Assembly: GCA_045586685.1 (NCBI GenBank)
Contig: JAZNAU010000018.1
Span: forward strand, 1 to 36,981
DNA: 36,981 bases
Direction of reading: 5' to 3'
Origin: Clostridia bacterium
GTDB lineage: Bacteria; Bacillota; Clostridia; HGM11514
The notes beneath the pieces are model-generated. The model was given only the letters and a program-made list of their open reading frames with translations, made no database searches and had not been told where the DNA came from. Positions within the stretch are counted from its first letter, which is position 1, and the number at the start of each line of letters is the position of its first letter. Below, piece by piece: positions 1,607 through 28,442 of the stretch. The translations under genes were made by a program, and so were the position numbers.

Positions 1607-2272
1607 TTATTTTCTTCTTTGTACAATATCATTTTGAGATTTTACGATGCTGTCCGAAGGATATACACCCCTTAGGGAAGTAAGGGGATATACAGAGGTG
1701 TTTTTTCCTAGCACCGTGCCCGGATTCAAAACACATCCGCAACCCACATCTGCACCATCTGCGAGTATTCCGCCAATTTTACGAATTCCTGTTTCATACT
1801 CCTTGTCCCCATGAATCACAACGGATTTTCCGTCTGATTTTAAATTTGAGCAAATGGAACCTGCTCCCATATGTGCACGATTACCAAGAATTGAATCGCC
1901 CACATAATTATAATGAGGCACTTGAACCTTTTCAAGGAGTACGCAGTTTTTCAGCTCGGATGAATTCCCTATCACGCAGTTTGGCCCTGTTATTACGGAG
2001 CCTCTTATAAATGCTCCGGGGCGTATTTCTGTCCCTTCTCCAATAATTGCAGGAGCTTCAATCACTGCTGTAGGATAGATTTTGACATTCTTCCCCACAT
2101 AAACACCCTCAGAAATTTCTGAAAAGCCTTCCAACCCATTTTCTATCAACTCATAGATATATGCCTTTATATGAGGCAACATTTCCCATGGATATTCGTA
2201 CTGTTCAAAAAACTTTGTCAGATAATCCGTTGTACAGTCAAACAAATCCTTTGTTTTGACAAGCTTATTCAA
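1607..2272 (-). CDS. GlmU-like glucosamine-1-phosphate N-acetyltransferase (left-handed beta-helix domain only)
   Basis: Hexapeptide repeats; PHYNYVGDS and GAGSICSN match GlmU acetyltransferase active-site motifs. No N-terminal GxGxR nucleotidyltransferase motif. Likely TTG start at 2272 after GGAGG, overlapping the glmM stop. Confidence 0.8.
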   Translation of the reverse strand: MNKLVKTKDLFDCTTDYLTKFFEQYEYPWEMLPHIKAYIYELIENGLEGFSEISEGVYVGKNVKIYPTAVIEAPAIIGEGTEIRPGAFIRGSVITGPNCVIGNSSELKNCVLLEKVQVPHYNYVGDSILGNRAHMGAGSICSNLKSDGKSVVIHGDKEYETGIRKIGGILADGADVGCGCVLNPGTVLGKNTSVYPLTSLRGVYPSDSIVKSQNDIVQRRK

Positions 2273-3884
2273 CGCTGTGCCCTCCCTTGATGATTTCATC
2301 CACAATCATTTGTGCGAACTCAACGCATTTTTCTTCACTTTCGCTTTCAATCATAACTCTGATAACCGGCTCTGTTCCGCTCTGACGAAGAAGTGCTCTT
2401 CCCTTGCCGGCAATCAACTCTTCCACTTTTTCTACGCTTTCCAGCACAGCTTTGTCCCGAAGCACCGCCGCTTTATCCTTGACTCGTACATTTTTCATAT
2501 ATTGGGGATAAAGTTTGACAGGAGCTGCAAGCTCTGCCAGAGAAAGCTTTGAATCGCATATTTCTTCTGCAATCATAATAGCAGTTAAAATACCGTCGCC
2601 TGTGGTTGCATGCTTTTTAAGTATGATATGTCCTGACTGTTCACCGCCGAGGGCATATCCCTTTTCTTGCATACATTCATAAACAAATCTGTCACCTACA
2701 GCTGTCTTTTCGCATTTTATACCCGCTTCTTCAAGACTGGCAAAAAAGCCGCTGTTTGACATAATGGTTGCAACCACTGTATCATGGTCAAGCATGCCTC
2801 TTGCTTTTAGTCTTTTTGCCAAAATGTAAAGCATCTTATCTCCATCCACGATTTCGCCATTGTTGTCTACTGCAATACATCTGTCGGCATCACCGTCAAA
2901 GGCAAAGCCTACATCAAGATGGTTCTCCTTTACAAGCTTGCACAAATTTTCAATATGAGTTGAACCGCAATTTTCGTTAACATTCAGTCCATTAGGCTCT
3001 GCACCGATTACTACAGTCTGTGCTCCCAATGCCCCAAACACCGATTTTGCTATCATCCATGACGACCCGTTTGCGCAATCAAGACCAATCTTTAAATTTT
3101 TATATGAATGAGATGCAATAGAAATAAGGTAACCAAGATATCGGTTTCTTCCTGATGAATAATCTGTAATACAACCGATTCTTTCTTTTGTGGCAAGAGG
3201 CAAATCATCTCCGGTAATACCGAGGGTTGCAAGGTCGCCGTCAAGATATGCTTCAATCAAAGCTGTTGTTTTATCGTCAAGCTTTTCTCCGTATTGATTG
3301 ATAATTTTAATACCATTGTCATAATAAGGATTGTGGGAGGCGGTTATCATAATTCCACAATCAAACCCCTCCTGCCGTGTCACATAAGAAACACTGGGAG
3401 TTGTTGTAACATGGAGCATATACGTATCTGCTGCCGAAGCTGTTATCCCTGCAACAATGGAATACTCAAGCATATAGCTTGACCTTCTCGTATCCTTACC
3501 AATCACAATTTTCGGTCTGTAGTTGCTCTTTTTACACCCTGAAAGCGGTGACGAATAATACCACCCTAAAAATCTGCCCACTTTATAGGCCTGCATTGAT
3601 GTCAAGGTTACGTTTGCCTCTCCTCTGAAACCGTCTGTGCCAAAATATTTATTCCCTTTCACTTTTTCGGTCTTTTGAGGAATGTTAACATCTTCAAGAA
3701 GAAGGCTGTCGGTTGAAATTTTAAAAAGTTCACACAACTGAAGAACTTTATCTATCTGCGGAAGGGCCTGGTCCATTTCCCATTTTGAAACTGACTGTCT
3801 GGAAACGTCAAGGTGCTCTGCCAACTGTTCCTGCGACAACCCCGCCATAATACGAAGATTTGCTATTTTTTCACCTATTTTCAT
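2265..3884 (-). CDS. glmM: phosphoglucosamine mutase with N-terminal XRE-family HTH domain
   Basis: N-terminus IANLRIMAGLSQEQLAEHLDVSRQSVSKWE is an XRE HTH. It is followed by YFGTDGFRG, phosphoserine loop TASHNP, metal loop DGDADR, GEQSGH and SGTEP. Confidence 0.92.
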   Translation of the reverse strand: MKIGEKIANLRIMAGLSQEQLAEHLDVSRQSVSKWEMDQALPQIDKVLQLCELFKISTDSLLLEDVNIPQKTEKVKGNKYFGTDGFRGEANVTLTSMQAYKVGRFLGWYYSSPLSGCKKSNYRPKIVIGKDTRRSSYMLEYSIVAGITASAADTYMLHVTTTPSVSYVTRQEGFDCGIMITASHNPYYDNGIKIINQYGEKLDDKTTALIEAYLDGDLATLGITGDDLPLATKERIGCITDYSSGRNRYLGYLISIASHSYKNLKIGLDCANGSSWMIAKSVFGALGAQTVVIGAEPNGLNVNENCGSTHIENLCKLVKENHLDVGFAFDGDADRCIAVDNNGEIVDGDKMLYILAKRLKARGMLDHDTVVATIMSNSGFFASLEEAGIKCEKTAVGDRFVYECMQEKGYALGGEQSGHIILKKHATTGDGILTAIMIAEEICDSKLSLAELAAPVKLYPQYMKNVRVKDKAAVLRDKAVLESVEKVEELIAGKGRALLRQSGTEPVIRVMIESESEEKCVEFAQMIVDEIIKGGHSVE

Positions 3885-3918
3885 TGATATCACCGCTCCT
3901 TATTCCTATATTATATTC

Positions 3919-3947
3919 ATAATATCAAAGCTAATTCGCATTATCAA
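3919..3947 (-). promoter_or_regulatory. sigma-A type promoter of HTH-glmM operon
   Basis: Minus strand TTGATA (3947-3942), 17-bp spacer, TG-n-TATTAT (3924-3919). Confidence 0.65.
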
Positions 3948-3969
3948 CCAACTTTTCTTTGAATGTTTC

Positions 3970-3984
3970 GCAACCATAGGTTGC
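3970..3984. promoter_or_regulatory. candidate operator palindrome GCAACC-ATA-GGTTGC
   Basis: Perfect 6-3-6 inverted repeat 23 bp upstream of the -35. A half-site CAACCA (3945-3950) overlaps the -35. Confidence 0.55.
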
Positions 3985-4030
3985 TTTTTTGTTTTGTTGT
4001 ACTATAAATGGGCTGTACTGCTCTATCAAA

Positions 4031-4169: not shown

Positions 4170-4943
4170 TTAAAGTACAAGTAATCGAACCAAAGAATAT
4201 AATACTGACGGGCAAAGCAAACAACCTAAGCCTGTATAGAAAGTAGAGGTCATTGCACCATAGGGGACCAATTTAGGGTCAGTTGCAGCAAGAGCTGCTG
4301 TTACACCGCTGGTTGTTCCCATCAAACCGCCGAAAACCATTGCCGCACCAGGGGTGGTAAGCCCAATCTTCTTTTTTATCATGGGAGTCACAAGCATGAC
4401 GGCAATAGATTTAAATACTCCCGCAGCAATCGAAATTGCAATAACAGTTGAATCTGCCCCCACTGCTGCACCGGTAACAGGGCCAACAACAAACGTCACC
4501 GTACCTGCAGCGATTGTTGCTATGCTTTCAGCATCTCTGTATCCAAAAGCAAAAGTAATCAAAGCTCCGATAATAAATGTTAAAATAACACCGACTAAAA
4601 GAGAGGCAACCCCAATAAATCCGCATTTTTTAATTTCTGAAAATTTAGCGCCGTATGCTGTGGAAACAATGGTAAAATCACGAAGAGTAGAACTTCCCAA
4701 AATGCCAATTCCTGTAAAAACAGTTACATCAGCAAGTCCTTTTGAACCACCCGTCATCCGTCCTCCAACATATGCCAATATCAGTCCCATAAAAATGGCT
4801 AATGCAGAAGAGTGAATTCTGCCTTTGGTGACTTTGGTTGAGACAAAGTTGGCAAATAATGAGATAATTCCAACAATTAAAAACGACATTACAAATGCAT
4901 TATCTACAAATAAATCTACTATTATGTTTGCTATTTCTTTCAT
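4170..4943 (-). CDS. madM: malonate transporter subunit MadM
   Basis: Hydrophobic protein with GRIHSSALAI, GGSKGLAD, LRDFTIVSTAYG, FGGLMGTTSGV and LVPYGAMTSTFYTGLGCLL motifs typical of MadM; TAATG coupling to madL. Confidence 0.92.
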   Translation of the reverse strand: MKEIANIIVDLFVDNAFVMSFLIVGIISLFANFVSTKVTKGRIHSSALAIFMGLILAYVGGRMTGGSKGLADVTVFTGIGILGSSTLRDFTIVSTAYGAKFSEIKKCGFIGVASLLVGVILTFIIGALITFAFGYRDAESIATIAAGTVTFVVGPVTGAAVGADSTVIAISIAAGVFKSIAVMLVTPMIKKKIGLTTPGAAMVFGGLMGTTSGVTAALAATDPKLVPYGAMTSTFYTGLGCLLCPSVLYSLVRLLVL

Positions 4944-5326
4944 TATTTCGCCTCCGTTTCTTCATCAACGGCTTTCTTTGATGTAAATTTATTAAAAATG
5001 GGTAACAGTAAAAACATAATAAATACTACACCAACTCCTGCTACAAAAGCAAGAACTCCTCCATCCAATGCGCTGACAACATTTTGCGATGCTGACATTG
5101 CAATAACAACAGGAATAAACATTTCTTTCCAAAAATTAAGACCTTTTGTATACCCTTCCGGCAACTTATCGGTTATTTTTTTGGAGTTGGTAATCAGTAA
5201 AAGCAAGAGCATAGAAAAACCGACTCCGCCTATATCCGAGTTCAATCCCGTTAGAAGACCTAACAAATTTCCTATGAATGACCCTACCAGCATACAGCCG
5301 GACAAGATAGCCACTCCGTAAATCAT
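4943..5326 (-). CDS. madL: malonate transporter subunit MadL
   Basis: MIYGVAILSGC...IGGVGFSMLLL...FW..MFIPVVIAMSASQNVVSAL matches MadL. Start placed at ATG 5326. Confidence 0.9.
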   Translation of the reverse strand: MIYGVAILSGCMLVGSFIGNLLGLLTGLNSDIGGVGFSMLLLLLITNSKKITDKLPEGYTKGLNFWKEMFIPVVIAMSASQNVVSALDGGVLAFVAGVGVVFIMFLLLPIFNKFTSKKAVDEETEAK

Positions 5327-5388
5327 AACATACCATCCCTTTCCATTTTTATATATTATTGAAACAAACAAAAATATACATTACAGTT

Positions 5389-5417
5389 ATTATATCACAA
5401 AAACACTTCTGATTCAA
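5389..5417 (-). promoter_or_regulatory. sigma-A type promoter of madLM
   Basis: TTGAAT (5417-5412), 17-bp spacer, TG-n-TATAAT (5394-5389). Confidence 0.75.
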
Positions 5418-5522
5418 GTTTTTTTGCTCTTTAAGAAATATTTATCATAAATCTGAACATTTGCAACATACTTTGACGTATTTTAACAGTACATTTAGCT
5501 CGCCGTCAGGCAGATTTAGTTG

Positions 5523-5556
5523 AAAAAAGACAGATTTCAATGAAATCCGTCTTTTT
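5523..5556 (-). terminator. intrinsic terminator downstream of DUF4430 gene
   Basis: aaaaagacagatttc-aat-gaaatccgtcttttt stem-loop with U tract on the minus strand. Confidence 0.7.
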
Positions 5557-5561
5557 CCGGA

Positions 5562-5583
5562 AAAGCAGAACCATAAAGATATT
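5562..5583. repeat. 22-bp direct repeat, left boundary of B12 module
   Basis: aaagcagaaccataaagatatt, 21/22 identical to 9557-9578; abuts the stop codon at 5584. Confidence 0.85.
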
Positions 5584-6306
5584 TTATAAATCTTTTCCCA
5601 TGTTGCAAGTGTATAAGAACTCTATTTTATCTCCTTTTTTTAGTTTGTATTGAGAACATCCAACAGACAAGATTTCACCATTCACACGATATATCCATCC
5701 TGAGAGATTTCCCGCGTCAAATTCATATAAATTTCCTATGCCCTGTATATAAACACTGTCAAACATTGGATTTTTGGTAAATTCAAAATGTATGTTGCGA
5801 TTTTTTAGTTCTCTTTCCAAAACATCAAAAGCACTTTGGCCTTCTGAAAATTCAAACTCAATTTCAGGTAAAATCAATCCACTTTCAGGGATTAAATGTA
5901 TTTTTTCAGGAGCAATACGATCCATATTATCTAAAAGTGTATCACATCTTACTGTAAGGAAACAAGAAAGCGTGTTCTTTTCAACTGATTCTTCCTGAAT
6001 TTCTATCTCTTCATCACGCTCTGACGTTTCTAAAGGAGCTACAGGTGTAGGTGTTATGATCTCTTTTATCTCAGTTTCCGTATGGTCTGTTGTTTCAATC
6101 GGAACATCTTCATTAACAGGTATTATAATTTCTTGTGTTTGTGCAGATTCTACAGTTTCCTCCGTGAAATCTTCATTAACAGATTCATTTACCTGAACGT
6201 CTGTGCTTATATTTTGTGAATCAGGATAATAAAAGTTAATTGCCAGAACTATAGCAAATATCCCTATGACAACAATAGTACCCTTAAACTTTTTTATAAA
6301 ATTCAT
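5584..6306 (-). CDS. membrane-anchored DUF4430 (transcobalamin-like beta domain) protein
   Basis: N-terminal TM helix, acidic E/T-rich linker, C-terminal SAFDVL...YIQGIGNLYEFDAGNLSGWIYRVNG...GDKIEFLYT DUF4430 signature. Confidence 0.85.
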   Translation of the reverse strand: MNFIKKFKGTIVVIGIFAIVLAINFYYPDSQNISTDVQVNESVNEDFTEETVESAQTQEIIIPVNEDVPIETTDHTETEIKEIITPTPVAPLETSERDEEIEIQEESVEKNTLSCFLTVRCDTLLDNMDRIAPEKIHLIPESGLILPEIEFEFSEGQSAFDVLERELKNRNIHFEFTKNPMFDSVYIQGIGNLYEFDAGNLSGWIYRVNGEILSVGCSQYKLKKGDKIEFLYTCNMGKDL

Positions 6307-9083
6307 ATTAACTTTGCCTTTCCAAGCATTTTATATAACATAACTGCAATATCTTCTCGTGTTACATTCTTTTTAGGATTAACAAAGTTTCCATTATCCT
6401 CTAAAATTCCATCATTGATACAGTATCCCATAGAAGACATAGCCCACACCGATATGCTGTCAAAATCCTCAAAATTGTCCAGTATCTCTTCTGCTGCAGC
6501 TACATCTATATCAGTTTTTATACCGGAAAGTTTTGCCGCACGCTCAACCATTGCAGCAGCTTCTTCAAGTGTGATTGTGCCTTGCGGATTAAACTCGCTG
6601 TGGGAAACACCTTTTACAATCCCGTAATGATATGCAGTTTTGATGTATGGCGCATACCATTCTTCAGCCTTTACATCTTCAAATTCCATGCCATCTTTTT
6701 GCGGAAGTCCCAATGCATTCACGATTATCGTTGCAAATTCTGCTCTTGTCATTGTAGCATAAGGGTCATAGCTTTCTTCTGTTTTTCCGTTTATTATGCC
6801 TCTTTCACAAAGAGCCTCAATTTCAGCTTTTCCTGTGCAATTTACAATGTCAGCAAAAGTTTTTCCTTTACTAATAACTTCTTTATATGTAATATCTTCA
6901 TTCTTTCCATCAAGACCAAATTCTGTTTTGGTATCATCATAATTGGAAGTGTCTTCTTTTTCTTCCTGTGAGCCACGTTCCTTTGTATAGTCATCCGTAT
7001 AGTACCACACAACTGTCGAATTTTTTGTCAGCCTTGTTTCACGGCAGCTTGTATTTTTGTATTTTCCATCAACTATAAACATCCAGCCTGAACGTGGTCC
7101 GTGGTCGAATTCGCCGTATCCGCCAATTTCGGAAACATATCCGTCAGCTTCAGTGAAGTCAACGCCTTCATCATCAAGAGCTTTTAAAAGAGCATCATAA
7201 ACAGTGTCGTTTTTATCTATGGTAACTTTTGTTGATACTAACGCATTGTATTTAGAAGCATTATTTTTATAAGTATATCCGTTTTCACAGTCATCGTCAT
7301 GAACCATTACCTTTACATTCACACGAATTTTACTTGAAACCGAATCGACACCTGACGAAATCTGTCTTTGATTCACTGTAATTTTACATACTGCAGGAAC
7401 AATATTTTTTGCTTCGGTATATGCTACTGCATAATATGTGCCAGTCCGAGACTGTGAAGTTGAAATTTCTACTTTGCCATCTTCATCGGTAGTAAGAACC
7501 TCGGCTGTAGTTCCTAAAAGCATAATTTTTGCACCTGCATAAGGAGATGAAATCTGATTCCAATTTTCATCATACCCAAGAGCATTTAATGTCAGTGTAA
7601 CGGAAGAACCTTTATCTACCGATACTGTATTTTCGCTAAAGTATGAATAAGCATCACTCCAGTACGTTGTGTCGTAATAATTAAATGCAGTGAGATAGTC
7701 ACCATCGCTTACAACATCGTGCAAGCTCCAACAACTTGTATTGTTTAAGTAATAACCGGAAGCCGCCGAAACTCCGGGTGTACCTTTACCCCAAAGAATT
7801 GCAAGAGACAAGCCGTAGTCACCAACAAAAGTGCTATAACCTGTTTCTGCACCGCCGTCGTATAGAGCTTCGTGTGTTGCATATAAAGCCTCATCAACGG
7901 TAAGTGTGCCATTTCTGTCCCGGTCAGAAACTGTCACCTTTGCCTGCGCAACATATTCTCCATTTTTGTCAGTAACAATATCTCCGTCATCCACGATGGT
8001 CACAAATACATCAACAGGCTCAGCCTCATTTTCTTCAGGAGCAGGGTCTTGTGTGCCCGCTAGGTCATTATATGCTTGACCGTCTGTGCCAAAGTCCCAG
8101 TATAAAACACTATCCTTGTGAATCTTTCTGTATGCATCATATGCCTGCATAATCTGATATGTGGCAAGTGTATTAACAGAATCTCCAAAAAGGTAGCCGT
8201 TTCCTTCGGTATTATGGTAACTTTCAAGAGAAGTAATAATATTTTCCTGTTCGTCAGCACCAAAACCGTTAGCAGGGTCAGTGACATCAATTCCAAGAGT
8301 AGAAAGCGTCAATAAAACTTGTGCCGTAGTATTCGGATTATCGTCATAATCCCAATCCTCAGAAATAGTGTCTCTAAGGAAAACAATGGCTTTATCAATG
8401 GCGGTTTCTACGGCTGGTTCATCTTTATATGGAGCTAGAGCTTGTACACAGATTGCAGTCATATCAACATCTGTATTTTCTGTGTCAAACAAACCAAAGC
8501 CGCCACTTTCTGTCTGGAATGTCAAAAGCCTATTAACAATATCACTTTTACTCCATGTAGCATCTTGCGGAATTTCTGCGCCTGAAGCATAAAGTGCTAA
8601 AAGAGAATATGCAAGTTCGTTTGTTCCGCTTTCAAGTTGGGTACTATTGCAAATAAAATTGATTAGATTAAGGCCTTCAATATCTGCAGGGTTCATATCC
8701 ATAACGGTAAAAGCAATTACTGCTTTTGCTGCATCTGTAGGCTTAACATTTGCATGCCAGCCTTTAACAGTTTCTTTTAAAGAACAGGTGTATTCTTCAA
8801 GAATAGAAGAAGTAACGCTTTTTTTGCCGCGAAGCAATGTTATAATAGCCCAATCAGAGCCAAATCCAACGCCCGAATCATTATGCATTTCTGTCAGTTT
8901 TTCGCTGAGGTACGCTTCTGCACTTCCGATGCCCCGACTTATGACATCATAGATGTCGCCTTCTGCAACCTCGCAACTGTCTGCAAGGCAATCTGTCATT
9001 TGCACGCTTGCGAGTGATACTGTTGATGTACCGATAATTATAACTATCGACAACAACAAGCATAAAAGTTTTTTGAATTTCAT
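6303..9083 (-). CDS. S-layer-homology (3xSLH) surface protein with prenyltransferase-like alpha-barrel and DUF4430 domains; probable cobamide-binding protein
   Basis: Signal peptide MKFKKLLCLL...; Q..SGGFG..DVDMTAICVQAL alpha-barrel repeats; YVSEIGGYGEFD..SGWMFIVDG (DUF4430); three SLH repeats (e.g. GIING...TRAEFA). RBS AAAGGA before ATG 9083. Confidence 0.85.
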   Translation of the reverse strand: MKFKKLLCLLLSIVIIIGTSTVSLASVQMTDCLADSCEVAEGDIYDVISRGIGSAEAYLSEKLTEMHNDSGVGFGSDWAIITLLRGKKSVTSSILEEYTCSLKETVKGWHANVKPTDAAKAVIAFTVMDMNPADIEGLNLINFICNSTQLESGTNELAYSLLALYASGAEIPQDATWSKSDIVNRLLTFQTESGGFGLFDTENTDVDMTAICVQALAPYKDEPAVETAIDKAIVFLRDTISEDWDYDDNPNTTAQVLLTLSTLGIDVTDPANGFGADEQENIITSLESYHNTEGNGYLFGDSVNTLATYQIMQAYDAYRKIHKDSVLYWDFGTDGQAYNDLAGTQDPAPEENEAEPVDVFVTIVDDGDIVTDKNGEYVAQAKVTVSDRDRNGTLTVDEALYATHEALYDGGAETGYSTFVGDYGLSLAILWGKGTPGVSAASGYYLNNTSCWSLHDVVSDGDYLTAFNYYDTTYWSDAYSYFSENTVSVDKGSSVTLTLNALGYDENWNQISSPYAGAKIMLLGTTAEVLTTDEDGKVEISTSQSRTGTYYAVAYTEAKNIVPAVCKITVNQRQISSGVDSVSSKIRVNVKVMVHDDDCENGYTYKNNASKYNALVSTKVTIDKNDTVYDALLKALDDEGVDFTEADGYVSEIGGYGEFDHGPRSGWMFIVDGKYKNTSCRETRLTKNSTVVWYYTDDYTKERGSQEEKEDTSNYDDTKTEFGLDGKNEDITYKEVISKGKTFADIVNCTGKAEIEALCERGIINGKTEESYDPYATMTRAEFATIIVNALGLPQKDGMEFEDVKAEEWYAPYIKTAYHYGIVKGVSHSEFNPQGTITLEEAAAMVERAAKLSGIKTDIDVAAAEEILDNFEDFDSISVWAMSSMGYCINDGILEDNGNFVNPKKNVTREDIAVMLYKMLGKAKLI

Positions 9084-9116
9084 TTTTTCAATTCCTTTCT
9101 TTTTTGCCGAACAAAT

Positions 9117-9159
9117 AAAAAAGCTACGGCAATTTTTGTTGTAAAAAATCACCACAGCT
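9117..9159 (-). terminator. riboswitch expression-platform attenuator
   Basis: Minus strand agctgtggtgattttt-tacaac-aaaaattgccgtagct followed by a U run, between aptamer and RBS. Confidence 0.65.
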
Positions 9160-9261
9160 GAGTTTTCCTGTGAGTATCACAATTTGCATCAAAGAATAGA
9201 GCTCCAGATATTTTTGGATACAAAAACATTATTCCTATGCAAATGAGCACGTACGGAATAA

Positions 9262-9462
9262 CATCAAAGCAGGTCTTGTGACTCGCATCATATAGACAAT
9301 ATAGTCTGCATTTTCATATCCCGCCTTCTCAGTTTCCCAATGACTATCTTTCGATAATGGATATAAAAACTTCAATGCATACACCGACAGTTATCGTCCA
9401 GGATTCGCACCTGATTCCCTTTTCACCGACCATACCTAAGCGGTATAATCAACACTTTGTGT
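9262..9462 (-). ncRNA. cobalamin riboswitch
   Basis: Minus strand tgaaaagggaatcaggtgcgaatcctgg...cggtgta...cattgggaaactgagaaggc...gagtcacaagacctgc (B12 box); P1 caaag/ctttg. Confidence 0.93.
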
Positions 9463-9485
9463 GAGTTATTAAATTTTACTTAATT

Positions 9486-9853: not shown

Positions 9854-10789
9854 TTATTGAATGGTGGAACGGAAGTAGTCGATCGTCTTTTTCAAACCTT
9901 CCTCCAACACAACCTCCGGTTGCCAACCAAGCTCTGTTTTTGCTCGGGTAATATCCGGTTTTCGTTTGCAGGGGTCATCCTGAGGCAAGGGCTCGTAAAT
10001 AAGCTTTGACTTACTTCCCGTCAACTCCAGCACCATTTGGGCAATTTCCTTAATGGTCATTTCTCTGGGATTTCCAAAATTAACAGGACCAATGATGTTC
10101 CCTTCCATCATGGCAATCATGCCACGAACCAAATCAGTGACAAAACAGAAGGAACGAGTTTGTTCGCCGGTACCGTAAATGGTAATATCCTGACCGCGAA
10201 GAGCCTGAACAACGAAGTTACTGACCACTCTGCCGTCATTTTCCATCATTCTTGGACCGTAAGTATTGAAAATACGAATGACACGGATATCAACACCGTA
10301 CTGACGGTGATAATCAAAAAACAAGGTTTCTGCGCAACGCTTTCCTTCGTCATAGCAAGAACGGATGCCAATGGGATTTACATTCCCCCAATAGCTTTCC
10401 ACTTGAGGATGAACCATAGGGTCGCCGTACACTTCACTGGTAGAAGCCTGTAAAATCTTTGCATTGCTCCGTTTCGCCAGTTCCAGCATATTGGAAGCGC
10501 CTACAACATTGGTATTAATCGTCTTTACAGGATTGTACTGATAATGCACGGGAGACGCAGGACACGCCAAATTGTAAATTTCATCAATTTCCACATCAAT
10601 AGAATTGATAATATCATGACGAATAATTTCAAAATAGGGATTACTCATCAAATGAGCCACATTTTCTTTTCTGCCGGTAAAAAAATTGTCAAGACAAATA
10701 ACCTCGCAGCCACGACGTAACAATTCTTCGCACAAATGAGAACCGATAAAACCGGCACCGCCTGTGACTAACACTCTTTTTCTAGACAT
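9854..10789 (-). CDS. uxs: UDP-glucuronate decarboxylase (UDP-xylose synthase), extended SDR
   Basis: [41 protein letters not shown] and DDP..RKPDI motifs of the UXS family. Confidence 0.9.
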
Positions 10790-10800
10790 ATCCTTCACCC

Positions 10801-11658
10801 CTACTCACGTTCTTGATTTTTTGCTTCTATTTTGTATCCTTTGGATTGATAAATCACGGACAGCAGAATCAACATTCCCACTACAGGAAACCGCCAGGTG
10901 CTTGCTTTCAGACTGTTCCAAAAAGACCACAGCCTTAACTTATAAAAACCGCCCACACTGCCCAGATTCTTTTTTATATGGTAATTTCCCCGCCCGCGGG
11001 TAATCTGCCAGCGAAGGAATCCCCCCAAGTCACCACGCTCCACGTGATACACAATCTGCTCTTTATTATACCATATCTTTTCTGATTTTGCAACTATTTT
11101 TTTTGAAAAATAGGTGTCTTCTCCACCGGGAACAGGGAAAGTGGTATTAAACCGTTCCATTTCATCGAAAAACCCTTTTCGGATTGCCAGATTACAACTG
11201 CTGATACTGTCGGTATACCCCTTTTCATCTACCTTCCACACCTTATCAAATCCTAAAATTCCGCCTCCCGGAAAACCCAAATATGCCACACAGGTACCAA
11301 AAAAGGTTTTGGCTTTTGTAATGGTGTTCCCCATAATCACATTCTCTTGCTCCAAACCCTTCATCACCTGTGATAGTGTTTGGGGTGCCAGTTCACAGTC
11401 AGAATCGGTAAAAAATAAATATTCGCTTTCACTAAGCTTGGCGCCATGATTTCGACATTTTGCCGGCCCGCCGTTTTGAGGCATCCGTTCTACCCGAAAT
11501 CGGGAATCCTGAAGTATTTGGTAATGGTCAAATTGAGAACAGTCATCCACTATTATCACTTCAAACTCCTGAAAAGTTTGATTGAGCAAAGATTGATACA
11601 ATACGGACAAATGCTCCTCCGACGTATTATAAGAAGGTACAATCACACTGACTTTCAT
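10801..11658 (-). CDS. family 2 glycosyltransferase
   Basis: [32 protein letters not shown] motifs. Confidence 0.9.
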
Positions 11659-11671
11659 TGTTTTATCCTTT

Positions 11672-13054
11672 CTATTCAGCACCGTTTCCGGTGAGAACCG
11701 TCCACAGGGTACGAAACAGTATTTTTATATCAAGGGTTAAGGACCAACGGTCGATATACTGCACATCCAGATTATAAATCTCTTCAAAATCAGTAATATC
11801 GTTTCTTCCGCTCACCTGCCACATTCCGGTCAATCCAGGCTTGATGGAAAGTCTTCTGCGGTGATACAATTCATACTCCTCCACCTCATCTACTGTAGGC
11901 GGACGGGTTCCCACCAGACTCATATCTCCCCGAAGCACATTCCAAAACTGCGGAAATTCATCCAAGCTTGTTTTTCTCAAAAACTTTCCGATAGGCGTTA
12001 CACGGGGGTCATTTTTCATTTTAAATACCGCTCCGTTCAACTCATTGTACTCTTTTAATTCTTCTAACTTTTGGTCTGCATCTGCAACCATGGAACGGAA
12101 TTTATACATTTGAAAGATTCTTCCATTTTGCCCCACCCGCTTTTGTGAATAAAACACTGGACCCGGAGAGGTCAGCTTAATGACAGGAGCAATAACAACC
12201 GAAACAAGTCCTGTTAAAACCAAACCAAAAAGTCCTCCCACAATATCCAACGCCCGTTTTAACAATAGCTGGCTTTGATTCAGAGATACGGTATGGAAGG
12301 TTAGCATGGGAACCTCACCCAAATAGCTCAATTCTGTTTTCGAAAGGGTCAAATGATACCAATCCAACAGCAATCTTGCAGTAACCCCCAATTCCTCGCA
12401 TTTTTGTAAGTACGGCTCAATATTTCCCGCCCAATCCTTAGGCAAGAAAAAAAATACCTGATCGGCAGTATGTTGAATAACCAATTCCTGTAAATGCTCT
12501 ACATTTCCCAGTCCCGATTCATCCGTCAGACTTACATAGCCTACCACATGAAAAATCAAATCCTGTTCCTGACGGATTTTTTTCATGGTTTCTTTTACTT
12601 TTTCCGGATCCCCCACCGCCAATACACGGGTTGCACCTACATTATCCTTAATTTTTGCAGTAAAGAATCGACGCAGTACCAGTTTTTCCGCAAACAGAAA
12701 ACAAAAATCAATTCCCAAAAACAAAAAAAATAAAAGTCTGCTGAAGGCATCATCCCGCATTAAGAATACAGTAGAAGAAGAAATCAGCCCACAAATTCCA
12801 AATGCCTTTAACAGCCGAAATCGCAACTGTTTTGAGGTCTTTTTAGAATCGTAAAAACCAAACAGATACAGCGAAATAAACATACTGGGAATAAATACCA
12901 GCAAAATCCAAGTATAGGAAAGCAGACCAAACAGAGGATTATCTGTTTGGAAAACCTGACTTCTGATGAAGTAAGCCACTAAAAATGCAATAACAGTCAG
13001 AAAAAGGTCGATAGTCCCTATCATCATATTCACTGCTTTTTCCGTTGATTTCAT
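11672..13054 (-). CDS. undecaprenyl-phosphate sugar phosphotransferase (WcaJ/CpsE-type priming transferase)
   Basis: Four N-terminal TM helices; KRALDI, KFRSM, DPRVT, SLDEFPQ, VGTRP, PGLTG.WQV motifs. Confidence 0.93.
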   Translation of the reverse strand: MKSTEKAVNMMIGTIDLFLTVIAFLVAYFIRSQVFQTDNPLFGLLSYTWILLVFIPSMFISLYLFGFYDSKKTSKQLRFRLLKAFGICGLISSSTVFLMRDDAFSRLLFFLFLGIDFCFLFAEKLVLRRFFTAKIKDNVGATRVLAVGDPEKVKETMKKIRQEQDLIFHVVGYVSLTDESGLGNVEHLQELVIQHTADQVFFFLPKDWAGNIEPYLQKCEELGVTARLLLDWYHLTLSKTELSYLGEVPMLTFHTVSLNQSQLLLKRALDIVGGLFGLVLTGLVSVVIAPVIKLTSPGPVFYSQKRVGQNGRIFQMYKFRSMVADADQKLEELKEYNELNGAVFKMKNDPRVTPIGKFLRKTSLDEFPQFWNVLRGDMSLVGTRPPTVDEVEEYELYHRRRLSIKPGLTGMWQVSGRNDITDFEEIYNLDVQYIDRWSLTLDIKILFRTLWTVLTGNGAE

Positions 13055-14143
13055 CTATTTCCTGCTCCTTTCTGCTATGGTTGGATAAATTGCCAAAAGC
13101 TCCGCACCTGTTTTTTCCCAACTAAGTTGCTCTGCCCGTCTCTTCCCTGCAGCAATCAGTTCATCATTCTCGTAGGCATTAACAATTCCTTTCGCAAAAG
13201 AGGCCGCATCCTCAGGCGGACAAAGAATCGCCCCGTTGTCCAACACCTCAGGAAGAGAAGCCGCATTTGATGCTACCACCGGCACGCCGTAACTCATCGC
13301 CTCTAAGGGAGGTAATCCAAATCCCTCATAAAAAGAGGGAAACAAAAACACCTTCGCTTTTCTGTACCAACCTGCAAGCTGACGTTCGTTACAATATCCC
13401 GTAAAACGAATCCTATCCTTAAAGGGACTGTTTTCCGCATAATCAAAAATGGATTCATATCGCCAACCCGGCTTTCCTGCTATAATCAAAGGAAGGGTAA
13501 ATTCAGGATTTTTCTGCCACAACAGTTCCATGGCTTTGATTGCGGTTATCTGATTTTTTCTGGGTTCAATGGTCCCTACGCACAAGACGCAAGGCTCTCC
13601 GTCTTCATCGCTATCAAAAGCGGAGTCCGTTCCCAACAGAATCGGAAAAACCTTTTCTTCTGACAGGGTAACATATCGCAGTAGCTCCCCCTTGGTAAAT
13701 TCCGAAACGGTAATCACCCCTGACGCACGCTTACAAGACAGGGGCAATAAGGTTTTTTTCGTAAAACTCATGGATTTTGTAAAGTAGTCCTCCGACGCAA
13801 AAAAACTCACATCATGCACCGTTACACAAATAGGTGCATTTACTTTTTGTAACGGAGTTACATAATCTAAAAAATGAATTAAATCATACTGTTCCCGATT
13901 CAAAATATTTCTAAATCCCGTCAGTTCAAAAAGCAATCTTTTTTTACTGGAAGAAAAACTACCCGGAGCTATAAATTTCATCTGCTCCGAGTCGTAAAAC
14001 AAATCCTTTACTGTACCATTGACATAAACCGTAAACTGATGCTCTCCCGGATTTTTCTGCAGTTCCCGAATGACATGCCATGCATAGTTTCCGACTCCCG
14101 CTTTTGTTTCCGACATAGTCAGAGCATTAAGGGCAATCTTCAT
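13055..14143 (-). CDS. family 4 glycosyltransferase (MtfB-like)
   Basis: TVHD, VGTIEPRKN, FPSFYEGFGLPPLEAM. Confidence 0.92.
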   Translation of the reverse strand: MKIALNALTMSETKAGVGNYAWHVIRELQKNPGEHQFTVYVNGTVKDLFYDSEQMKFIAPGSFSSSKKRLLFELTGFRNILNREQYDLIHFLDYVTPLQKVNAPICVTVHDVSFFASEDYFTKSMSFTKKTLLPLSCKRASGVITVSEFTKGELLRYVTLSEEKVFPILLGTDSAFDSDEDGEPCVLCVGTIEPRKNQITAIKAMELLWQKNPEFTLPLIIAGKPGWRYESIFDYAENSPFKDRIRFTGYCNERQLAGWYRKAKVFLFPSFYEGFGLPPLEAMSYGVPVVASNAASLPEVLDNGAILCPPEDAASFAKGIVNAYENDELIAAGKRRAEQLSWEKTGAELLAIYPTIAERSRK

Positions 14144-15228
14144 TTCCCTGCCTCCTCCAATGCGGCATTGACTGCTGCGGTAAAGCTTTTATCAAAGATA
14201 TCCTTACTAAACCTCAAGGCATTTTCGCGAATTTTTTCTTTAGAAAATTTCATGGATTCAAACCTCAAAATTGCATCACACAAGGAATCTACCGTTTGTT
14301 CTTCAAAAAAGATTCCCGTTTCTCCGTTCTTAACCGTTTCTAATGCTCCGCCTTTGCCGTATGCAATGACAGGTCTTCCGCAGGCTTGTGCTTCTACAGG
14401 TGTAATACCAAAATCTTCCTCACCGGGAAACAAAAATGCTTTACAATTCTGATAATACTGACGCAACTCCTCATCAGAACATCGTCCCACAAAGGTGGTA
14501 TGCGTTCCTGCCAGCTTACGCAGTTTCTTTTTTTCTCCGCCTGTCCCAGATACAATCAATTTTCGCCCTAACCGTTCGCAGGCTGAAATTGCCAAGTCAA
14601 TCCGCTTATAGTTTACAAAACGGGACGCAATAAAATAATAATCCTCTGTGGGTTGCTCAATGGGTGTGTAAAAATCCGTATTTCCAAAGGGATAAACAAC
14701 CGTACTTTCCCTCCGATAATGCTTTTTAATCCGTCGGCTGACATTTTTGGAATTTGCCATAAATGCATCCACCCGCATGGAAGAAAGAGCATCCCACATT
14801 CTGATTTTATGCATATAATGAGGAATCAACCACCGAAACAAGGGGGAGGCATGATTTTTATACTCAAAATAAAAGTCCCAGGCATAGCGCATGGGAGTTG
14901 CGCAAAAGCATATATGAACCGTATCCGCACGGGTCAGAACACCTTTGGCACAGCAAGTAGAAGAAGAAATTACCAAATCATATTCGGACAAATCAAAAGA
15001 CTCCACCGCTTTTGGAAAAAATGGCAGATATTTATTGTACAATTTGTCTGCAAAGGGAAACTTCTGAATATAAGAAGGTCTCACATTGGAAAACACTTTC
15101 CCCATAGTTTTTTCACGGAAAACTATCGTATAAATAGGAGCATCGGGATAAAGCTCCGTAATCCGCTTTAATACTTGCTCCGCACCTCCAAAATTGGTCA
15201 GCCAATCATGTACAATCGCAACTTTCAT
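14140..15228 (-). CDS. family 4 glycosyltransferase (WbaZ-like)
   Basis: [35 protein letters not shown]; RBS AGGAG before ATG 15228. Confidence 0.92.
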
Positions 15229-15238
15229 ATCATTTCTC

Positions 15239-16363
15239 CTATAATTCCTTGTATATTTCAAACACTTTATCCGTCGCCTGTTCCCAGGTAAATTGTTTCA
15301 CATGCTCAAACCCTTGTTTGATACAGGATTCGCGCAAATCACTCTCGGTCAAAATCCGTTCCATAGCATCTGCCAGTTGCTCTGAATCCTTCGGATTCAC
15401 CAGCACAGCGGCACTTCCCGTTACTTCCGGAAGGCACGAACAATCAGAGGTAATCACAGGCACACCGCACGCCATCGCCTCAAGGGGCGGGATTCCAAAC
15501 CCTTCATACAGAGAGGGAAACACAAAGGCTTTCGCTCCTGAATACAGTTTTGGTAAATCCTCCGAGGGCAAGTACCCTGTAAATACCACATCCTGTTCCA
15601 ACCCATATTCTTTCACTTTTTCAAAAATCGTATCGTATTCCCAACCTCTGGCACCGCCAAGCACCAGCTTGCAATCCCCAATTTTTGGTTTAACAATACG
15701 GTAGCTTTCCAACAGTCCAAGTAAATTTTTCCTAGGCTCCAATGTGCCCAAATACAAAAAATAATCCTTAGGCAGTCCTGACAGTCTATCTGTGACGGGA
15801 CGGAACCGATTTTGGTCGACTCCGTTATATACCACCCGAATTTTTTCCTTGGGCAGATTCATCTGGTCAATCAATTCCTGCTTCACAGTTTCCGAAACAG
15901 TAATAATCACATCCGCATCCTGACAGGAGCGTTCCAAATGCATTTTCAGTCTTCTGTAGTTTCGTTTCTCCATGGTTTCCGGAAAATTCAAATACACCAA
16001 ATCATGAACCGTATTCACAATTTTTCCGGGCACCCTTGGCGGAACCACAAAATTAAAAAAATGATAAATATCTGCAGTTGTACCAAACACCTGTCCCAAA
16101 CCAAGTCGGGGCAGTTTATTCCACAGTTCCACATATATTCCGTAGGGAAGAAGATTGTTCTGCACAATTTTTGTTTCAGGAATCCGTTCTCCCAACACTT
16201 CCCCGCTGCCCCGCCGTTTTAAAAAGTCATACAACAGCAAGGTACAGTCAAGTTCCTCTCGTCCGCAAAGACGGGAAGCAATCTCCAAAGCATGAACCCC
16301 TACCCCGCTTAATCGAGGGGACGCAATGGGGTATGCATCAAAAGCAATTTTCAAAGAAATCAC
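15239..16363 (-). CDS. family 4 glycosyltransferase (MtfB-like)
   Basis: [30 protein letters not shown]; start may be TTG at 16354. Confidence 0.92.
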
Positions 16364-17313
16364 TCCTGTTCCTTCCGTTCATAATCCATTTTGCGCACAC
16401 GATACTGCACATCCTCAATCAATTTCCGATTGGCAGAAATCACGTCCGCAAGCAGTCCGAGAGTAATGGTCTGAAATCCGATCATCAACAGGACAGCCGT
16501 TAAAATTAAAGATTGGATATGTCCGTCACCCGTTCCTGTAAAATAAAAATACAGAAATCGGCATCCCAAAATCCCACCCAGTGCAAAAATAATACTTCCT
16601 ATAGTTGCAAACAACTTAAAGGGGCGATACATGAGAAAAATCCGAAACATAGTAGAAACCGACCGCTTGATATAAGCACGCATACTCTTAAACAAACGGG
16701 ATGTTCTCAGTTGGGGATTGGTACGAACAGGCACCGATTCCAATGCCACATTTTTATTTCCTGCCTGAATGATGGTTTCCAAGGTATAGGTGTATCTGGA
16801 CACCACGTTCAGTTTCATTGCCGTTTCTCTGCTATACGCACGAAATCCGCTGGGCGCATCAGGTACATCCGTTCCTGATACCATACGCACCACCGAGCTT
16901 CCCACCCGCTGTAATTTTTTCTTCAAAGGAGAAAAGTCATCAATCGTATCAATCGGACGTTCTCCGATTACCATTTCCGCTTTCCCCTCCAAAATCGGAC
17001 GAATCAGCTTTTCAATATCCTCACCGCAATACTGGTTGTCCGCATCGGTGTTTACAATAATATCCGCACCCAATCTTAAACATGCATCAATCCCTGTCAT
17101 AAAAGCGGTAGCAAGTCCCTTATTTTTACTGTACCCCACAATGTGATGCACCCCGCAGTTTCTTGCCGCCTCTACCGTATTATCCTGACTTCCGTCATTG
17201 ATAATCAGATATTCAATTTCATCTACTCCGTCTATTTGTTTAGGAAGATCTCCCACCGCAATATGCAGGGTTTCTTCCTCGTTATAACAGGGAATTTGTA
17301 TGATTAGTTTCAC
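16360..17313 (-). CDS. family 2 glycosyltransferase (DPM-synthase/GtrB-like, two C-terminal TM helices)
   Basis: IQIPCYNEE, INDGSQD, NTDADNQY, SGFRAY. Confidence 0.9.
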   Translation of the reverse strand: MKLIIQIPCYNEEETLHIAVGDLPKQIDGVDEIEYLIINDGSQDNTVEAARNCGVHHIVGYSKNKGLATAFMTGIDACLRLGADIIVNTDADNQYCGEDIEKLIRPILEGKAEMVIGERPIDTIDDFSPLKKKLQRVGSSVVRMVSGTDVPDAPSGFRAYSRETAMKLNVVSRYTYTLETIIQAGNKNVALESVPVRTNPQLRTSRLFKSMRAYIKRSVSTMFRIFLMYRPFKLFATIGSIIFALGGILGCRFLYFYFTGTGDGHIQSLILTAVLLMIGFQTITLGLLADVISANRKLIEDVQYRVRKMDYERKEQE

Positions 17314-20220: not shown

Positions 20221-22041
20221 TTATTTCTCTACCAAAGCAAACCCGCCTGAAAAAACAGTAACGGCATCTGATTGCTCCGCATTTTGTCCAATCATCAACG
20301 TTCCTTTCACCGAATAGGGTTCCCCGTTACGGTTGACAATCAGATGAAACCGATTGCCTCGGCTGATATGAAACACCTCCTCGTTTCCAAACTCCAGGGC
20401 AGTGTCCCCTGATTGCAATTCAGCATAGGTTTTCTTTAACACTGACAACTGACGGTAAAATTCAATCAATTCCTTGTCTTCCTTTCCCCAAGGGAAACAC
20501 CTGCGGTTTAAAGGGTCCTCAAAGCCTTCCATCCCTGCCTCGTCGCCGTAATAAATACAGGGCATACCAGGGAGAAAAAACTGCATTGCCGCTGCCTGAC
20601 GTTCTTTCTTCAAAGCAATTTCCTTTTGTTTGGAGGATAAAAACCGTTCCGCTTTTTCCTCCTTGCTTCCTTCAAAAGAATCCCCCAAAAGGGTTAATAT
20701 TCTGGGAGTATCGTGAGTAGATAAGCTGTTCATCAGACAATCCACCACAGGACGGGGATAGTTTTCACAAATGGTCATTACGGTTTGTGCAAAGGAAAGT
20801 CCGTCCAGCTTTCCTGTCAAATACTTTAACATTTCATCCCGAAACGGATAGTTCATGACCGAATCCAGCTCCGCTTCTGTAAAATAAGTTCTCCGCACAC
20901 CATAACTGCACTTGTTAGAGGCATCCTCCCACACTTCTCCGATAACCAGTCCGTCAGGATTTAATTCCTTTACTCTTGCATGAAGCAAACGAATAAATTC
21001 ATCCGGCAATTCATCTGCCACATCAAGACGAAAACCGTCTGCCCCTCGCTTCATCCAATAAGAAATTACACTGTCCTCATCACGGATGATAAAATCCAAA
21101 TAAGAGTCGTTTAACTCATTAACGCAGGGCAACGTCTTTATCCCCCACCAGCTTTCATAACTGTGAGGATATTCCTTAAATTGAAACCAATCTTTATAAG
21201 GAGAATCAGCATGATGAAAGGCACCCTTTCCAAAGCGGTTATGCACATCAAAATACACACTGTCCGACCCTGTATGAGAAAACACGCCGTCTAAAATTAC
21301 CTTTATTTTTCGCTTATGTGCCTCGTTGCAAAGGGAGATAAACTGCTCTTCCGTTCCCAACATAGGGTCCACGCACTTATAATCTGCCGTATCATAACGA
21401 TGATTGGAATAGGCTTTAAAAACAGGATTTAAGTACAGCACCGAAACACCAAGCTCCGCCAGATAATTCAATTTTTCTATAATTCCGCAAAAGTTTCCTC
21501 CGTAAAAATCATTATTCTGTACAATTCCCTGTTCATCAGGATTGAAAATGGGTGATTCCTCTGTAGATTGATGAAGGATAAAGGGAGTTAGTTTATGAGT
21601 CAGGTCACAGTCCCCCGATTTTGCGAATCTGTCCGGAAAAATCTGATACATGACCCCTCCCTGATAATCACGGGGAGTTGTAAAATCCTTATCAAAGCAG
21701 GTCAACTGCCACTTCTCCCCTTCTTCCATATTGGTTTGATCATATCCTTCACGGAACAAACGGAAAGAGTTTCCCTCCTGTATTACCACAAAATAATAAA
21801 AGTACAACCCTCTCCGAAACAGAGAGAAAGTACCTCCAAATCGTTCATACTCCCCTTCATCTTCCATTTTTCCAAAGGGCACACGAAGGGAAAAGCCTTT
21901 TTCATCCTCTAAGCATAGGAGTACCTCATTGACAGCACAGTTTTTTGGAATCAGTAGACTGATGCTACACTTTTCATCCTGTCTCAGGCAACCGAAAGGA
22001 GTTTTAAATTGGGCTTGCTTGCTATCATATAAAATTCTCAT
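20221..22041 (-). CDS. GH13 alpha-amylase family (neopullulanase/amylopullulanase-like, probable glycogen debranching)
   Basis: YQIFPDRF, SNHRYDT, LDGVFSH, GFRLDVADE, GEVW, STHD, YYGDEAG. Confidence 0.9.
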   Translation of the reverse strand: MRILYDSKQAQFKTPFGCLRQDEKCSISLLIPKNCAVNEVLLCLEDEKGFSLRVPFGKMEDEGEYERFGGTFSLFRRGLYFYYFVVIQEGNSFRLFREGYDQTNMEEGEKWQLTCFDKDFTTPRDYQGGVMYQIFPDRFAKSGDCDLTHKLTPFILHQSTEESPIFNPDEQGIVQNNDFYGGNFCGIIEKLNYLAELGVSVLYLNPVFKAYSNHRYDTADYKCVDPMLGTEEQFISLCNEAHKRKIKVILDGVFSHTGSDSVYFDVHNRFGKGAFHHADSPYKDWFQFKEYPHSYESWWGIKTLPCVNELNDSYLDFIIRDEDSVISYWMKRGADGFRLDVADELPDEFIRLLHARVKELNPDGLVIGEVWEDASNKCSYGVRRTYFTEAELDSVMNYPFRDEMLKYLTGKLDGLSFAQTVMTICENYPRPVVDCLMNSLSTHDTPRILTLLGDSFEGSKEEKAERFLSSKQKEIALKKERQAAAMQFFLPGMPCIYYGDEAGMEGFEDPLNRRCFPWGKEDKELIEFYRQLSVLKKTYAELQSGDTALEFGNEEVFHISRGNRFHLIVNRNGEPYSVKGTLMIGQNAEQSDAVTVFSGGFALVEK

Positions 22042-22059
22042 CCTTTATCCTCACCATAC

Positions 22060-22087
22060 AAAAGGGCGGACAGAATTGCCCGCCCTT
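22060..22087 (-). terminator. hairpin / partial terminator between glgP and GH13
   Basis: Minus strand aagggcgggc-aattct-gtccgccctt followed by a short U run. Confidence 0.55.
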
Positions 22088-22094
22088 ATCAAAA

Positions 22095-24509: not shown

Positions 24510-24564
24510 ACTTTACTCCTTCCAACACCGCAAAAAAGACGCGGCAAAATCAATAAAAATAATG

Positions 24565-25998: not shown

Positions 25999-26061
25999 AC
26001 TGTTTTCGCCTTTCCGACTCAAAAAATTTCAATCCCGCTGTGCCAGAGTCAAAGCACAGGG

Positions 26062-27186: not shown

Positions 27187-27221
27187 TTCTCTAACCTGCC
27201 TTTTGCTTAATTTGTATACTC

Positions 27222-28418: not shown

Positions 28419-28442
28419 GGAAAAAACGCTTCCTTTCTCTCT

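Follow-up and report, generated by a model that had tools for sequence, protein, structure and literature searches.

Several bacterial proteins combine a metabolic enzyme and an N-terminal DNA-binding domain in one polypeptide. BirA, NadR and PutA are built in this way and act on genes of their own pathways, with effector control established. In the MocR/GabR-type regulators, a helix-turn-helix (HTH) domain is fused to an aminotransferase-like domain that is mostly a sensor, supplying dimerization and ligand binding. Phosphoglucosamine mutase (GlmM) performs an essential, conserved step towards uridine diphosphate N-acetylglucosamine (UDP-GlcNAc), and its known moonlighting has so far been confined to inhibition of the cyclic di-AMP (c-di-AMP) cyclase CdaA/DacA at the protein level, as described in PMC8573169 and PMC6368335. 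Our literature searches returned no published description of an HTH–GlmM, or of another phosphohexomutase fused to a DNA-binding domain. Here we describe such a fusion, encoded on contig JAZNAU010000018.1 of a Clostridia bacterium (GCA_045586685.1; GTDB HGM11514). The window, meaning the whole stretch of DNA analyzed, spans 36,981 nucleotides (nt) and is numbered on the forward strand. From its sequence, the fused protein is best explained as a catalytically competent phosphoglucosamine mutase carrying an N-terminal XRE-type DNA-binding domain, and it probably controls its own operon.

The fusion resembles BirA, NadR and PutA in joining an enzyme to an N-terminal DNA-binding domain that would act on genes of its own pathway; it differs in enzyme family. 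It shares with MocR/GabR-type proteins an HTH joined to an enzyme fold, but it keeps every catalytic residue and sits in a housekeeping gene position. In common with canonical GlmM (3PDK, 7OJR, 6GYZ) are the four-domain phosphohexomutase fold, the catalytic loops, a domain-I homodimer (predicted here) and amino-sugar neighbors, whereas the MG start is replaced by a 77-residue N-terminal extension made of the HTH and a linker. Canonical GlmM moonlights through CdaA/DacA, while the second role proposed for the fusion is DNA binding; the window contains no cdaA. Finally, the five-helix HTH_3 domain and a short palindrome whose half-sites lie one helical turn apart, fitting a dimer, recall XRE/Cro-CI repressors such as ImmR (7T8I) and P22 C2 (1ADR). 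Unlike these repressors, the fusion has a full metabolic enzyme as its dimerization or effector module, in place of a small C-terminal domain or a peptidase partner.

The fused gene is composed of the following parts:

2265..3884, minus strand: HTH–GlmM fusion open reading frame (ORF), 539 amino acids plus stop (ORF reading, Pfam, NCBIfam)
3699..3884, minus strand: XRE-type HTH, residues 1–62 (HTH_3, AlphaFold2, alignment, ratio of nonsynonymous to synonymous substitution rates (dN/dS))
3654..3698, minus strand: linker, residues 63–77 (alignment; predicted local distance difference test score (pLDDT) about 51–56)
2268..3653, minus strand: GlmM core, residues 78–539 (TIGR01455 above cut-off; motifs aligned to 3PDK and 7OJR)
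3896..3901, minus strand: ribosome-binding site AAGGAG, 11 nt before the ATG (sequence reading)

A single frame runs from the ATG at 3884 to the stop at 2265–2267. The start encoded there, MKIGEK, agrees with the MK/MTIGEK start of all relatives, and this ATG has the 11-nt spacing from AAGGAG, whereas the alternative GTG at 3893 lies merely 2 nt past it. Pfam domains follow one another in order: HTH_3 (residues 7–60), then PGM_PMM_I (79–215), II (256–343), III (347–455) and IV (463–529). No methionine occurs between M37 and M97. The original prediction, made from the letters of the window, had described a complete XRE HTH joined in frame to an intact GlmM through a linker devoid of internal methionine; the single 539-residue ORF, with Pfam and NCBIfam scores above their cut-offs, bears out each of these points.

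The enzyme half is a GlmM by every sequence comparison made. Residues 81–531 score 500.1 bits on the glmM equivalog model TIGR01455, where the cut-off is 447.55 (NCBIfam). The core aligns from residue 74 or 78 to 533 with the solved enzymes of B. anthracis (3PDK), B. subtilis (7OJR) and S. aureus (6GYZ) at E values of 1e-119 to 1e-122, the first two at 1e-122. The one source name given for the related proteins is 'phosphoglucosamine mutase' (JGI). The motifs TASHNP, DGDADR and GEQSGH, which had been read off the sequence beforehand, are all present and fall into register with solved GlmMs: the phosphoserine loop TASHNP (Ser183), the metal loop DGDADR (330–335), the sugar loop GEQSGH (414–419) and the domain-4 phosphate loop RQSGTEP (500–506) all align to B. 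anthracis and B. subtilis GlmM. S183, whose codon lies at 3336–3338, aligns with chain position 100 of B. subtilis GlmM, called the catalytic Ser100 in PMC8573169. Across 18 fused sequences S183, D330/D332/D334, E415–H419 and R500/S502–P506 are invariant, and one catalytic-loop position varies, A333 (A, C or G). Relative to canonical GlmM, domain I of the core carries two 7-residue insertions. An AlphaFold2 model built from the 18 fused sequences (mean pLDDT 78.7; predicted template modeling score 0.56) shows a five-helix HTH, a low-confidence linker at 63–80 and then the GlmM body.

The N-terminal domain scores 48.4 bits against the HTH_3 model (PF01381; Pfam cut-off 23). Its five helices (3–14, 18–25, 29–36, 44–54 and 58–62) are modeled at pLDDT 83–92, and its nearest solved HTHs belong to DNA-binding repressors, ImmR of ICEBs1 (7T8I) and P22 C2 (1ADR). 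In the alignment of fused sequences the stretch S28–M37, SRQSVSKWEM, is invariant save for V/I at position 32, and we take it as the putative site of the recognition helix. The linker differs in sequence and length between loci, being 13 residues longer in L006. Against the window, dN/dS over the HTH is 0.017 (L009), 0.079 (L001), 0.13 (L004) and 0.20 (L003); in the nine other pairs with the window, dS is saturated. The HTH is under purifying selection.

To place the fusion among relatives, we searched GTDB representatives (one genome per species) and kept the best 80 of more than 600 matching stretches, 889,572 nt in total. Operators and second glmM genes were sought in the 6-kb flanks of these loci and the one 37-kb window. 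A corresponding in-frame N-terminal HTH is present in 14 loci of the 80 (L001 and L003–L015); the remaining 66, amounting to 737,765 nt, are unfused and begin at MGKYFGTDG or similar. Every fused locus stems from a metagenome-assembled clostridial genome recovered from a gut sample; the labels at NCBI are Clostridia, Eubacteriales, Acutalibacteraceae, Ructibacterium, Christensenellaceae, or uncultured Ruminococcus or Lachnospiraceae. In a collection of 5.8 billion proteins clustered at 90% identity, HTH and PGM domains occur together in 120/120 of the best clusters (80–100% identity, 522–569 residues). Query residues 1–78 matched 1869 proteins of 296–944 residues at E<=1e-15, with PGM domains in all 120 listed. 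Recurrence on this scale puts the fusion far beyond chance. None of the 150 best matches in a library of 50%-identity representatives covers residues 1–77, which indicates that the clade is narrow and was folded into a cluster with an unfused representative. A single-genome or artefactual fusion had been named beforehand as one outcome that would undo the prediction; what we found is a domain architecture in at least 14 species-level genomes, with purifying selection on its HTH.

A quick IQ-TREE phylogeny of the GlmM core (LG+G4, 81 rows) gathers the fused genes and L002 into one clade, with support of 100 in the Shimodaira–Hasegawa-like approximate likelihood ratio test (SH-aLRT) and a stem of 0.37 changes per site. 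L002 is unfused, yet nested in the fused clade as sister of L015 (SH-aLRT 95), so the fusion label requires one gain and one loss. Naturally split forms were sought by comparing residues 1–78 with proteins of 42–137 residues, and this candidate was set aside: none of ten inspected among 156 matches (E<=1e-5) was a split form. Four of the ten were fusions cut by contig ends and continuing into NKYFGTDGFRGEAN, three had an early stop or frame change, and three were unrelated XRE proteins.

An element that may tie the HTH to its own locus lies 5' of the fused gene. The features of this region are:

3970..3984, no strand assigned: candidate operator, inverted repeat GCAACC-TAT-GGTTGC, or GCAAC-N5-GTTGC (conservation across fused loci)
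3948..3953, minus strand: AGTTGG abutting the -35, a possible third half-site (14-region alignment, from which the half-site reading is drawn)
3919..3947, minus strand: predicted promoter with -35 TTGATA (3942–3947), 17-nt spacer and TG-extended -10 TATTAT (3919–3924) (motif scan)

The palindrome is a new element here. Its exact form occurs once in the 36,981-nt window, inside 3900–4000, the stretch that the original prediction had named for an electrophoretic mobility shift assay. Among the 80 loci, exact copies occur in 11, every one of them fused, and each copy lies 5' of the fused gene. Allowing up to one mismatch adds L006 and L012, which brings the palindrome to 13/13 fused loci with upstream DNA (L007 begins inside the fused gene at its contig start). 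The 66 unfused loci hold no exact copy. They hold nine one-mismatch copies, estimated at no more than chance, one of which (L057) lies about 230 nt before an unfused glmM. In L002, both the HTH and the palindrome are gone. Just past the acetyltransferase gene that follows glmM in that locus lie a tRNA gene (4702–4774) and a phage-type integrase gene (4794–5690), and an integration or rearrangement close by may be linked to the loss of the HTH and operator.

An ungapped alignment of 14 upstream regions, anchored on the repeat, shows which bases are held. The left arm is identical in 14/14; in the right arm GTT is identical in 14/14 and GC in 12/14, and the five bases between the arms differ among sequences. 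Because most of these genomes are saturated at synonymous sites relative to one another, ten bases would not have stayed constant in intergenic DNA that was evolving neutrally. AGTTGG is conserved 16–17 bases past the repeat, its GTTG 22 nt past the GTTG of the right arm, and directly after it come a -35 of the form TTGAnn and, beyond a 17-nt spacer, a TG-extended -10. From the start of the palindrome to the start of the -35 is 37–38 nt in each promoter that was scanned, namely those of the window, L008, L010 and L015. The palindrome is thereby centered about 65 nt upstream of the inferred transcription start, with AGTTGG near -38 to -40.

The genes beyond the site differ between the window and 11 fused loci. 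They encode MadM, a sulfatase, an ABC ATPase, an EamA protein, a radical SAM protein, a protein with no Pfam match, an epimerase, HydF, a small exporter, ArgG, RpiR and an aminotransferase; hence, the palindrome belongs to, and travels with, the fused gene and not its neighbor. Apart from a one-mismatch match at 3042 of L015 and, in L005 and L008, a second copy within the intergenic region that holds the first, the fused loci carry the site solely before the fused gene. The second copies, at 5819–5833 of L005 (exact) and 898–912 of L008 (one mismatch), lie 63–71 nt upstream of the promoter-proximal copy, and their presence hints at cooperative binding or looping in some species. A wider regulon in the window was considered and rejected, as two one-mismatch matches (9909 and 15366) both fall inside ORFs and their count is within chance.

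How might the fusion read this site? In a predicted complex of two copies of residues 1–250, domain I forms a symmetric dimer with a score of 0.84, the best of three controls scoring 0.00. The benchmark mark for this score was reached by 20/30 proteins solved as one-chain pairs and by 1/23 solved as single chains. The runs gave at least 76% contact agreement and a partner pLDDT of at least 84. Homodimers of GlmM have already been solved (3PDK and 7OJR; PMC8573169), so the prediction may reflect likeness to those structures. The predicted interface comprises residues 89–100, 134–149, 187–188 and 230–239, with the HTH outside it. Since the interface starts about ten residues past the linker, the two HTHs would leave the dimer near its two-fold axis on flexible tethers, a modeled geometry that would suit a compact 15-bp palindrome.

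We therefore propose a working scheme from these predictions. GlmM would dimerize through domain I, and the N-termini beside the interface would present two HTHs on flexible linkers of 15–30 residues. These would read the invariant arms of GCAAC-N5-GTTGC, whose centers lie 10 bp apart. Binding would autoregulate an operon of glmM and the GlmU-like acetyltransferase gene, joined in some species by glmS or a nagB-like gene. We would guess that this feedback acts negatively on the amount of enzyme and that the active site, through its phosphorylation or ligand state, may tune it. From its position, the palindrome could serve repression, by blocking the -35 and upstream contacts, or activation from an upstream site; we favor negative autoregulation. 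Taken as a whole, we consider it reasonably likely that the two HTHs of a GlmM dimer sit on the palindrome and that the protein thereby autoregulates the amino-sugar operon. The fusion architecture, its conservation, the purifying selection on the HTH and the exclusive pairing of HTH with palindrome are what the sequences show; DNA binding, the geometry of the dimer on DNA, the sign of regulation and any sensing of metabolites are what we infer.

Several considerations weigh against this proposal. Not every XRE-type HTH reads DNA; that of RodZ, for example, has a protein as its partner. With a center near -65, beyond the -35, the palindrome does not occupy the place classically expected of a simple repressor site. 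The transcription start is itself a prediction, and several loci have promoter-like hexamers upstream of the palindrome, with which the site would fall in a 5' leader instead. Other operators, or a second unfused glmM, are possible elsewhere in these genomes, beyond the flanks and the one window covered.

The interpretation put forward in the original prediction is thus supported in part. The palindrome with invariant arms, its fixed offset from the promoter and the restriction of exact copies to the DNA before fused genes speak for self-regulation; the broader scope then suggested, transcription of UDP-GlcNAc synthesis, extends on this evidence to the fusion's own operon alone. A further step would make the protein a true trigger enzyme, in which the phosphorylation or ligand state of the active site gates engagement of GCAAC-N5-GTTGC by the HTH, and flux from glucosamine 6-phosphate to glucosamine 1-phosphate (GlcN-1-P) sets transcription of the amino-sugar operon. 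We regard this step as possible but doubtful. Five residues separate the attachment point of the tether from the GTDGFRG loop of the active site, so coupling to phospho-sugar binding or to Ser183 phosphorylation is conceivable, as pure conjecture.

A simpler autoregulator would do without such gating. The HTH would bind the palindrome and the GlmM body would serve as its dimerization module, tying the operon to enzyme concentration with no metabolite or phosphorylation input. The operator and the conservation evidence fit this account equally well. The variable, low-confidence linker argues against a rigid allosteric connection, and the HTH sits outside the predicted dimer interface; the short distance to the GTDGFRG loop makes coupling sterically conceivable and counts the other way. 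We hold this plainer account to be a tentative one, with the odds somewhat against it.

If the HTH were instead a protein-interaction or localization module, the palindrome would have to serve a different binding factor or work as an RNA hairpin. Protein binding has a precedent among XRE-like HTHs in the contact of RodZ with MreB, and a scan of the plus strand scores the palindrome as a weak terminator-like hairpin with a T run behind it. Yet the site occurs, in exact form, only where the HTH is present and was lost with it in L002; the differing upstream genes mean that the palindrome is not their terminator; and the arms are invariant without covariation around a variable spacer, in a stem of 5–6 bp. 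SRQSVSKWEM, which putatively contains the recognition helix, varies no more than the arms do. Invariant arms, a free spacer, half-sites one helical turn apart and co-occurrence with an invariant HTH stretch together form the signature of an operator for a dimeric HTH and not of an RNA hairpin, which leaves this explanation improbable.

In the proposed scheme, the fusion both regulates and catalyzes, and the surrounding operon bears on the second part. The gene that follows is:

1607..2272, minus strand: stand-alone left-handed beta-helix (LbH) acetyltransferase, 221 amino acids (homology to the C-terminal half of GlmU)

Its TTG start at 2272 overlaps the glmM stop by 8 nt, with GGGAGGG 7 nt upstream of the TTG, and in the window the gene is translationally coupled to glmM. 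The LbH protein matches positions 209–390 of the 393 in TIGR03992 (archaeal-type GlmU), which is the acetyltransferase half, and the solved structure nearest to it is that of the Sulfolobus ST0452 C-terminal domain (2GGO/5Z09, residues 236–386). It has no nucleotidyltransferase domain. The ST0452 domain acetylates GlcN-1-P; if this holds here, the operon encodes two consecutive steps. An LbH homologue lies directly 3' of the fused glmM in 12/14 fused loci, L008 showing its first 43 residues before the contig ends. A homologue also follows the unfused L002 glmM, and one adjoins the unfused glmM, usually on its upstream side, in many Oscillospiraceae-type loci. The arrangement suggests a split GlmU in these Clostridia. 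Next downstream come glmS in L003 and L010, and a gene like nagB (glucosamine-6-phosphate isomerase) in L004, L012 and L015.

This context speaks to whether the fused protein is a regulatory paralogue that has lost, or does not need, mutase activity, with a canonical glmM elsewhere. The long stem of the fused clade would fit such a history, and the DNA searched comprised loci and the window rather than whole genomes. Against it stand the score above the equivalog cut-off, the invariant catalytic loops and a glmM–LbH(–glmS) context that is the same as for unfused glmM in related taxa. The fused gene occupies the ordinary glmM position, and loss of the HTH in L002 left the enzyme in place. There is no other PGM-family gene in the window, and no second locus from fused-clade assemblies occurs among the best 80 of the more than 600 matching stretches; since only the best 80 were kept, this absence is weak evidence. 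L013 has a PGM-family paralogue that is 24% identical. We judge a purely regulatory paralogue to be highly improbable.

A further idea, that the fusion takes the place of a glmS ribozyme, was dropped. No such ribozyme reaches Rfam gathering thresholds in the window, in 12 fused loci and L002, or in 12 relatives without the fusion, including four in which glmS likewise comes right after glmM; its absence from both groups leaves no contrast on which a replacement argument could stand.

An assembly or gene-calling artefact, for which chimeric GlmMs in metagenome protein libraries (truncated GlmM joined to pieces of other proteins) offer a precedent, has a negligible probability, as both parts are complete, the junction is kept across many independent assemblies from several sources and selection acts on the HTH.

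Those chimeras came from a check for other GlmM fusions in the 50%-identity library, a candidate class that was rejected: among eight odd-length representatives, four were chimeras of truncated pieces and none had an HTH. P0125, P0132, P0140 and P0160 combine a truncated GlmM with truncated pieces of a type IV secretion system (T4SS) coupling protein, a helicase, YebC or an SIS protein. Their appearance is that of assembly chimeras, and they call for caution when domain architectures are counted in metagenomes.

XRE genes near unfused glmM were likewise considered as a related arrangement and rejected. Such genes occur in L056, L058, L061 and L065, all Oscillospiraceae, and encode XRE-HTH proteins 37–40% identical to the fused HTH. 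In both loci inspected, L056 (7119–8144) and L061 (7405–8217), the gene is separate and lies about 130 nt 3' of the unfused glmM, its product ending in a hydrophobic, apparently membrane-spanning tail. The proximity may be coincidence or may reflect a looser link between XRE regulators and glmM.

Other features of the window surround the glmM operon. A cobalamin riboswitch (54.3 bits; 9251–9474, minus strand) precedes a gene for a 950-residue surface protein with SLH and DUF4430 domains, which is followed by a second DUF4430 protein. MadL- and MadM-like transporter subunits come next on the same strand, and the four ORFs lie at 6303–9155, 5584–6306, 4943–5371 and 4170–4943 (all minus). The genes from the riboswitch to MadM may form one B12-controlled uptake operon that ends just upstream of the glmM operator.

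On the other side, a perfect 25-nt direct repeat occurs at 1299–1323 and 1572–1596, 273 nt apart. The repeat is itself a G/C-rich hairpin, ACCCCCCGT...ACGGGGGGTT, and its copies bracket a hairpin-rich stretch between a convergent HD-domain gene and the LbH gene. In L009, a 94%-identical relative, about 60 nt separate the HD-domain and LbH genes, which suggests a small insertion or duplication at this place in the window. Farther along are a polysaccharide biosynthesis cluster (9854–17313; a sugar transferase, several GT2/GT4 glycosyltransferases and an epimerase) and a glycogen cluster (20221–30341; a branching enzyme, two ADP-glucose pyrophosphorylase-like subunits, glycogen synthase, phosphorylase and amylase). 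SpoIIE, encoded at 30648–32948, indicates that the organism is a spore-former.

The locus lends itself unusually well to bench work: besides the protein there are a defined candidate operator of 15 bp with invariant arms, a natural control in L002, which has lost the HTH, and obvious candidate ligands. If the proposal is true, a DNA-reading GlmM would bring a phosphohexomutase into the small set of enzymes that double as transcription factors, and would reveal how the supply of cell-wall precursors is controlled in a clade of abundant, uncultured gut Clostridia. Should the trigger-enzyme step also hold, that control would take the form of a protein-based feedback loop on cell-wall precursor supply in this clade.

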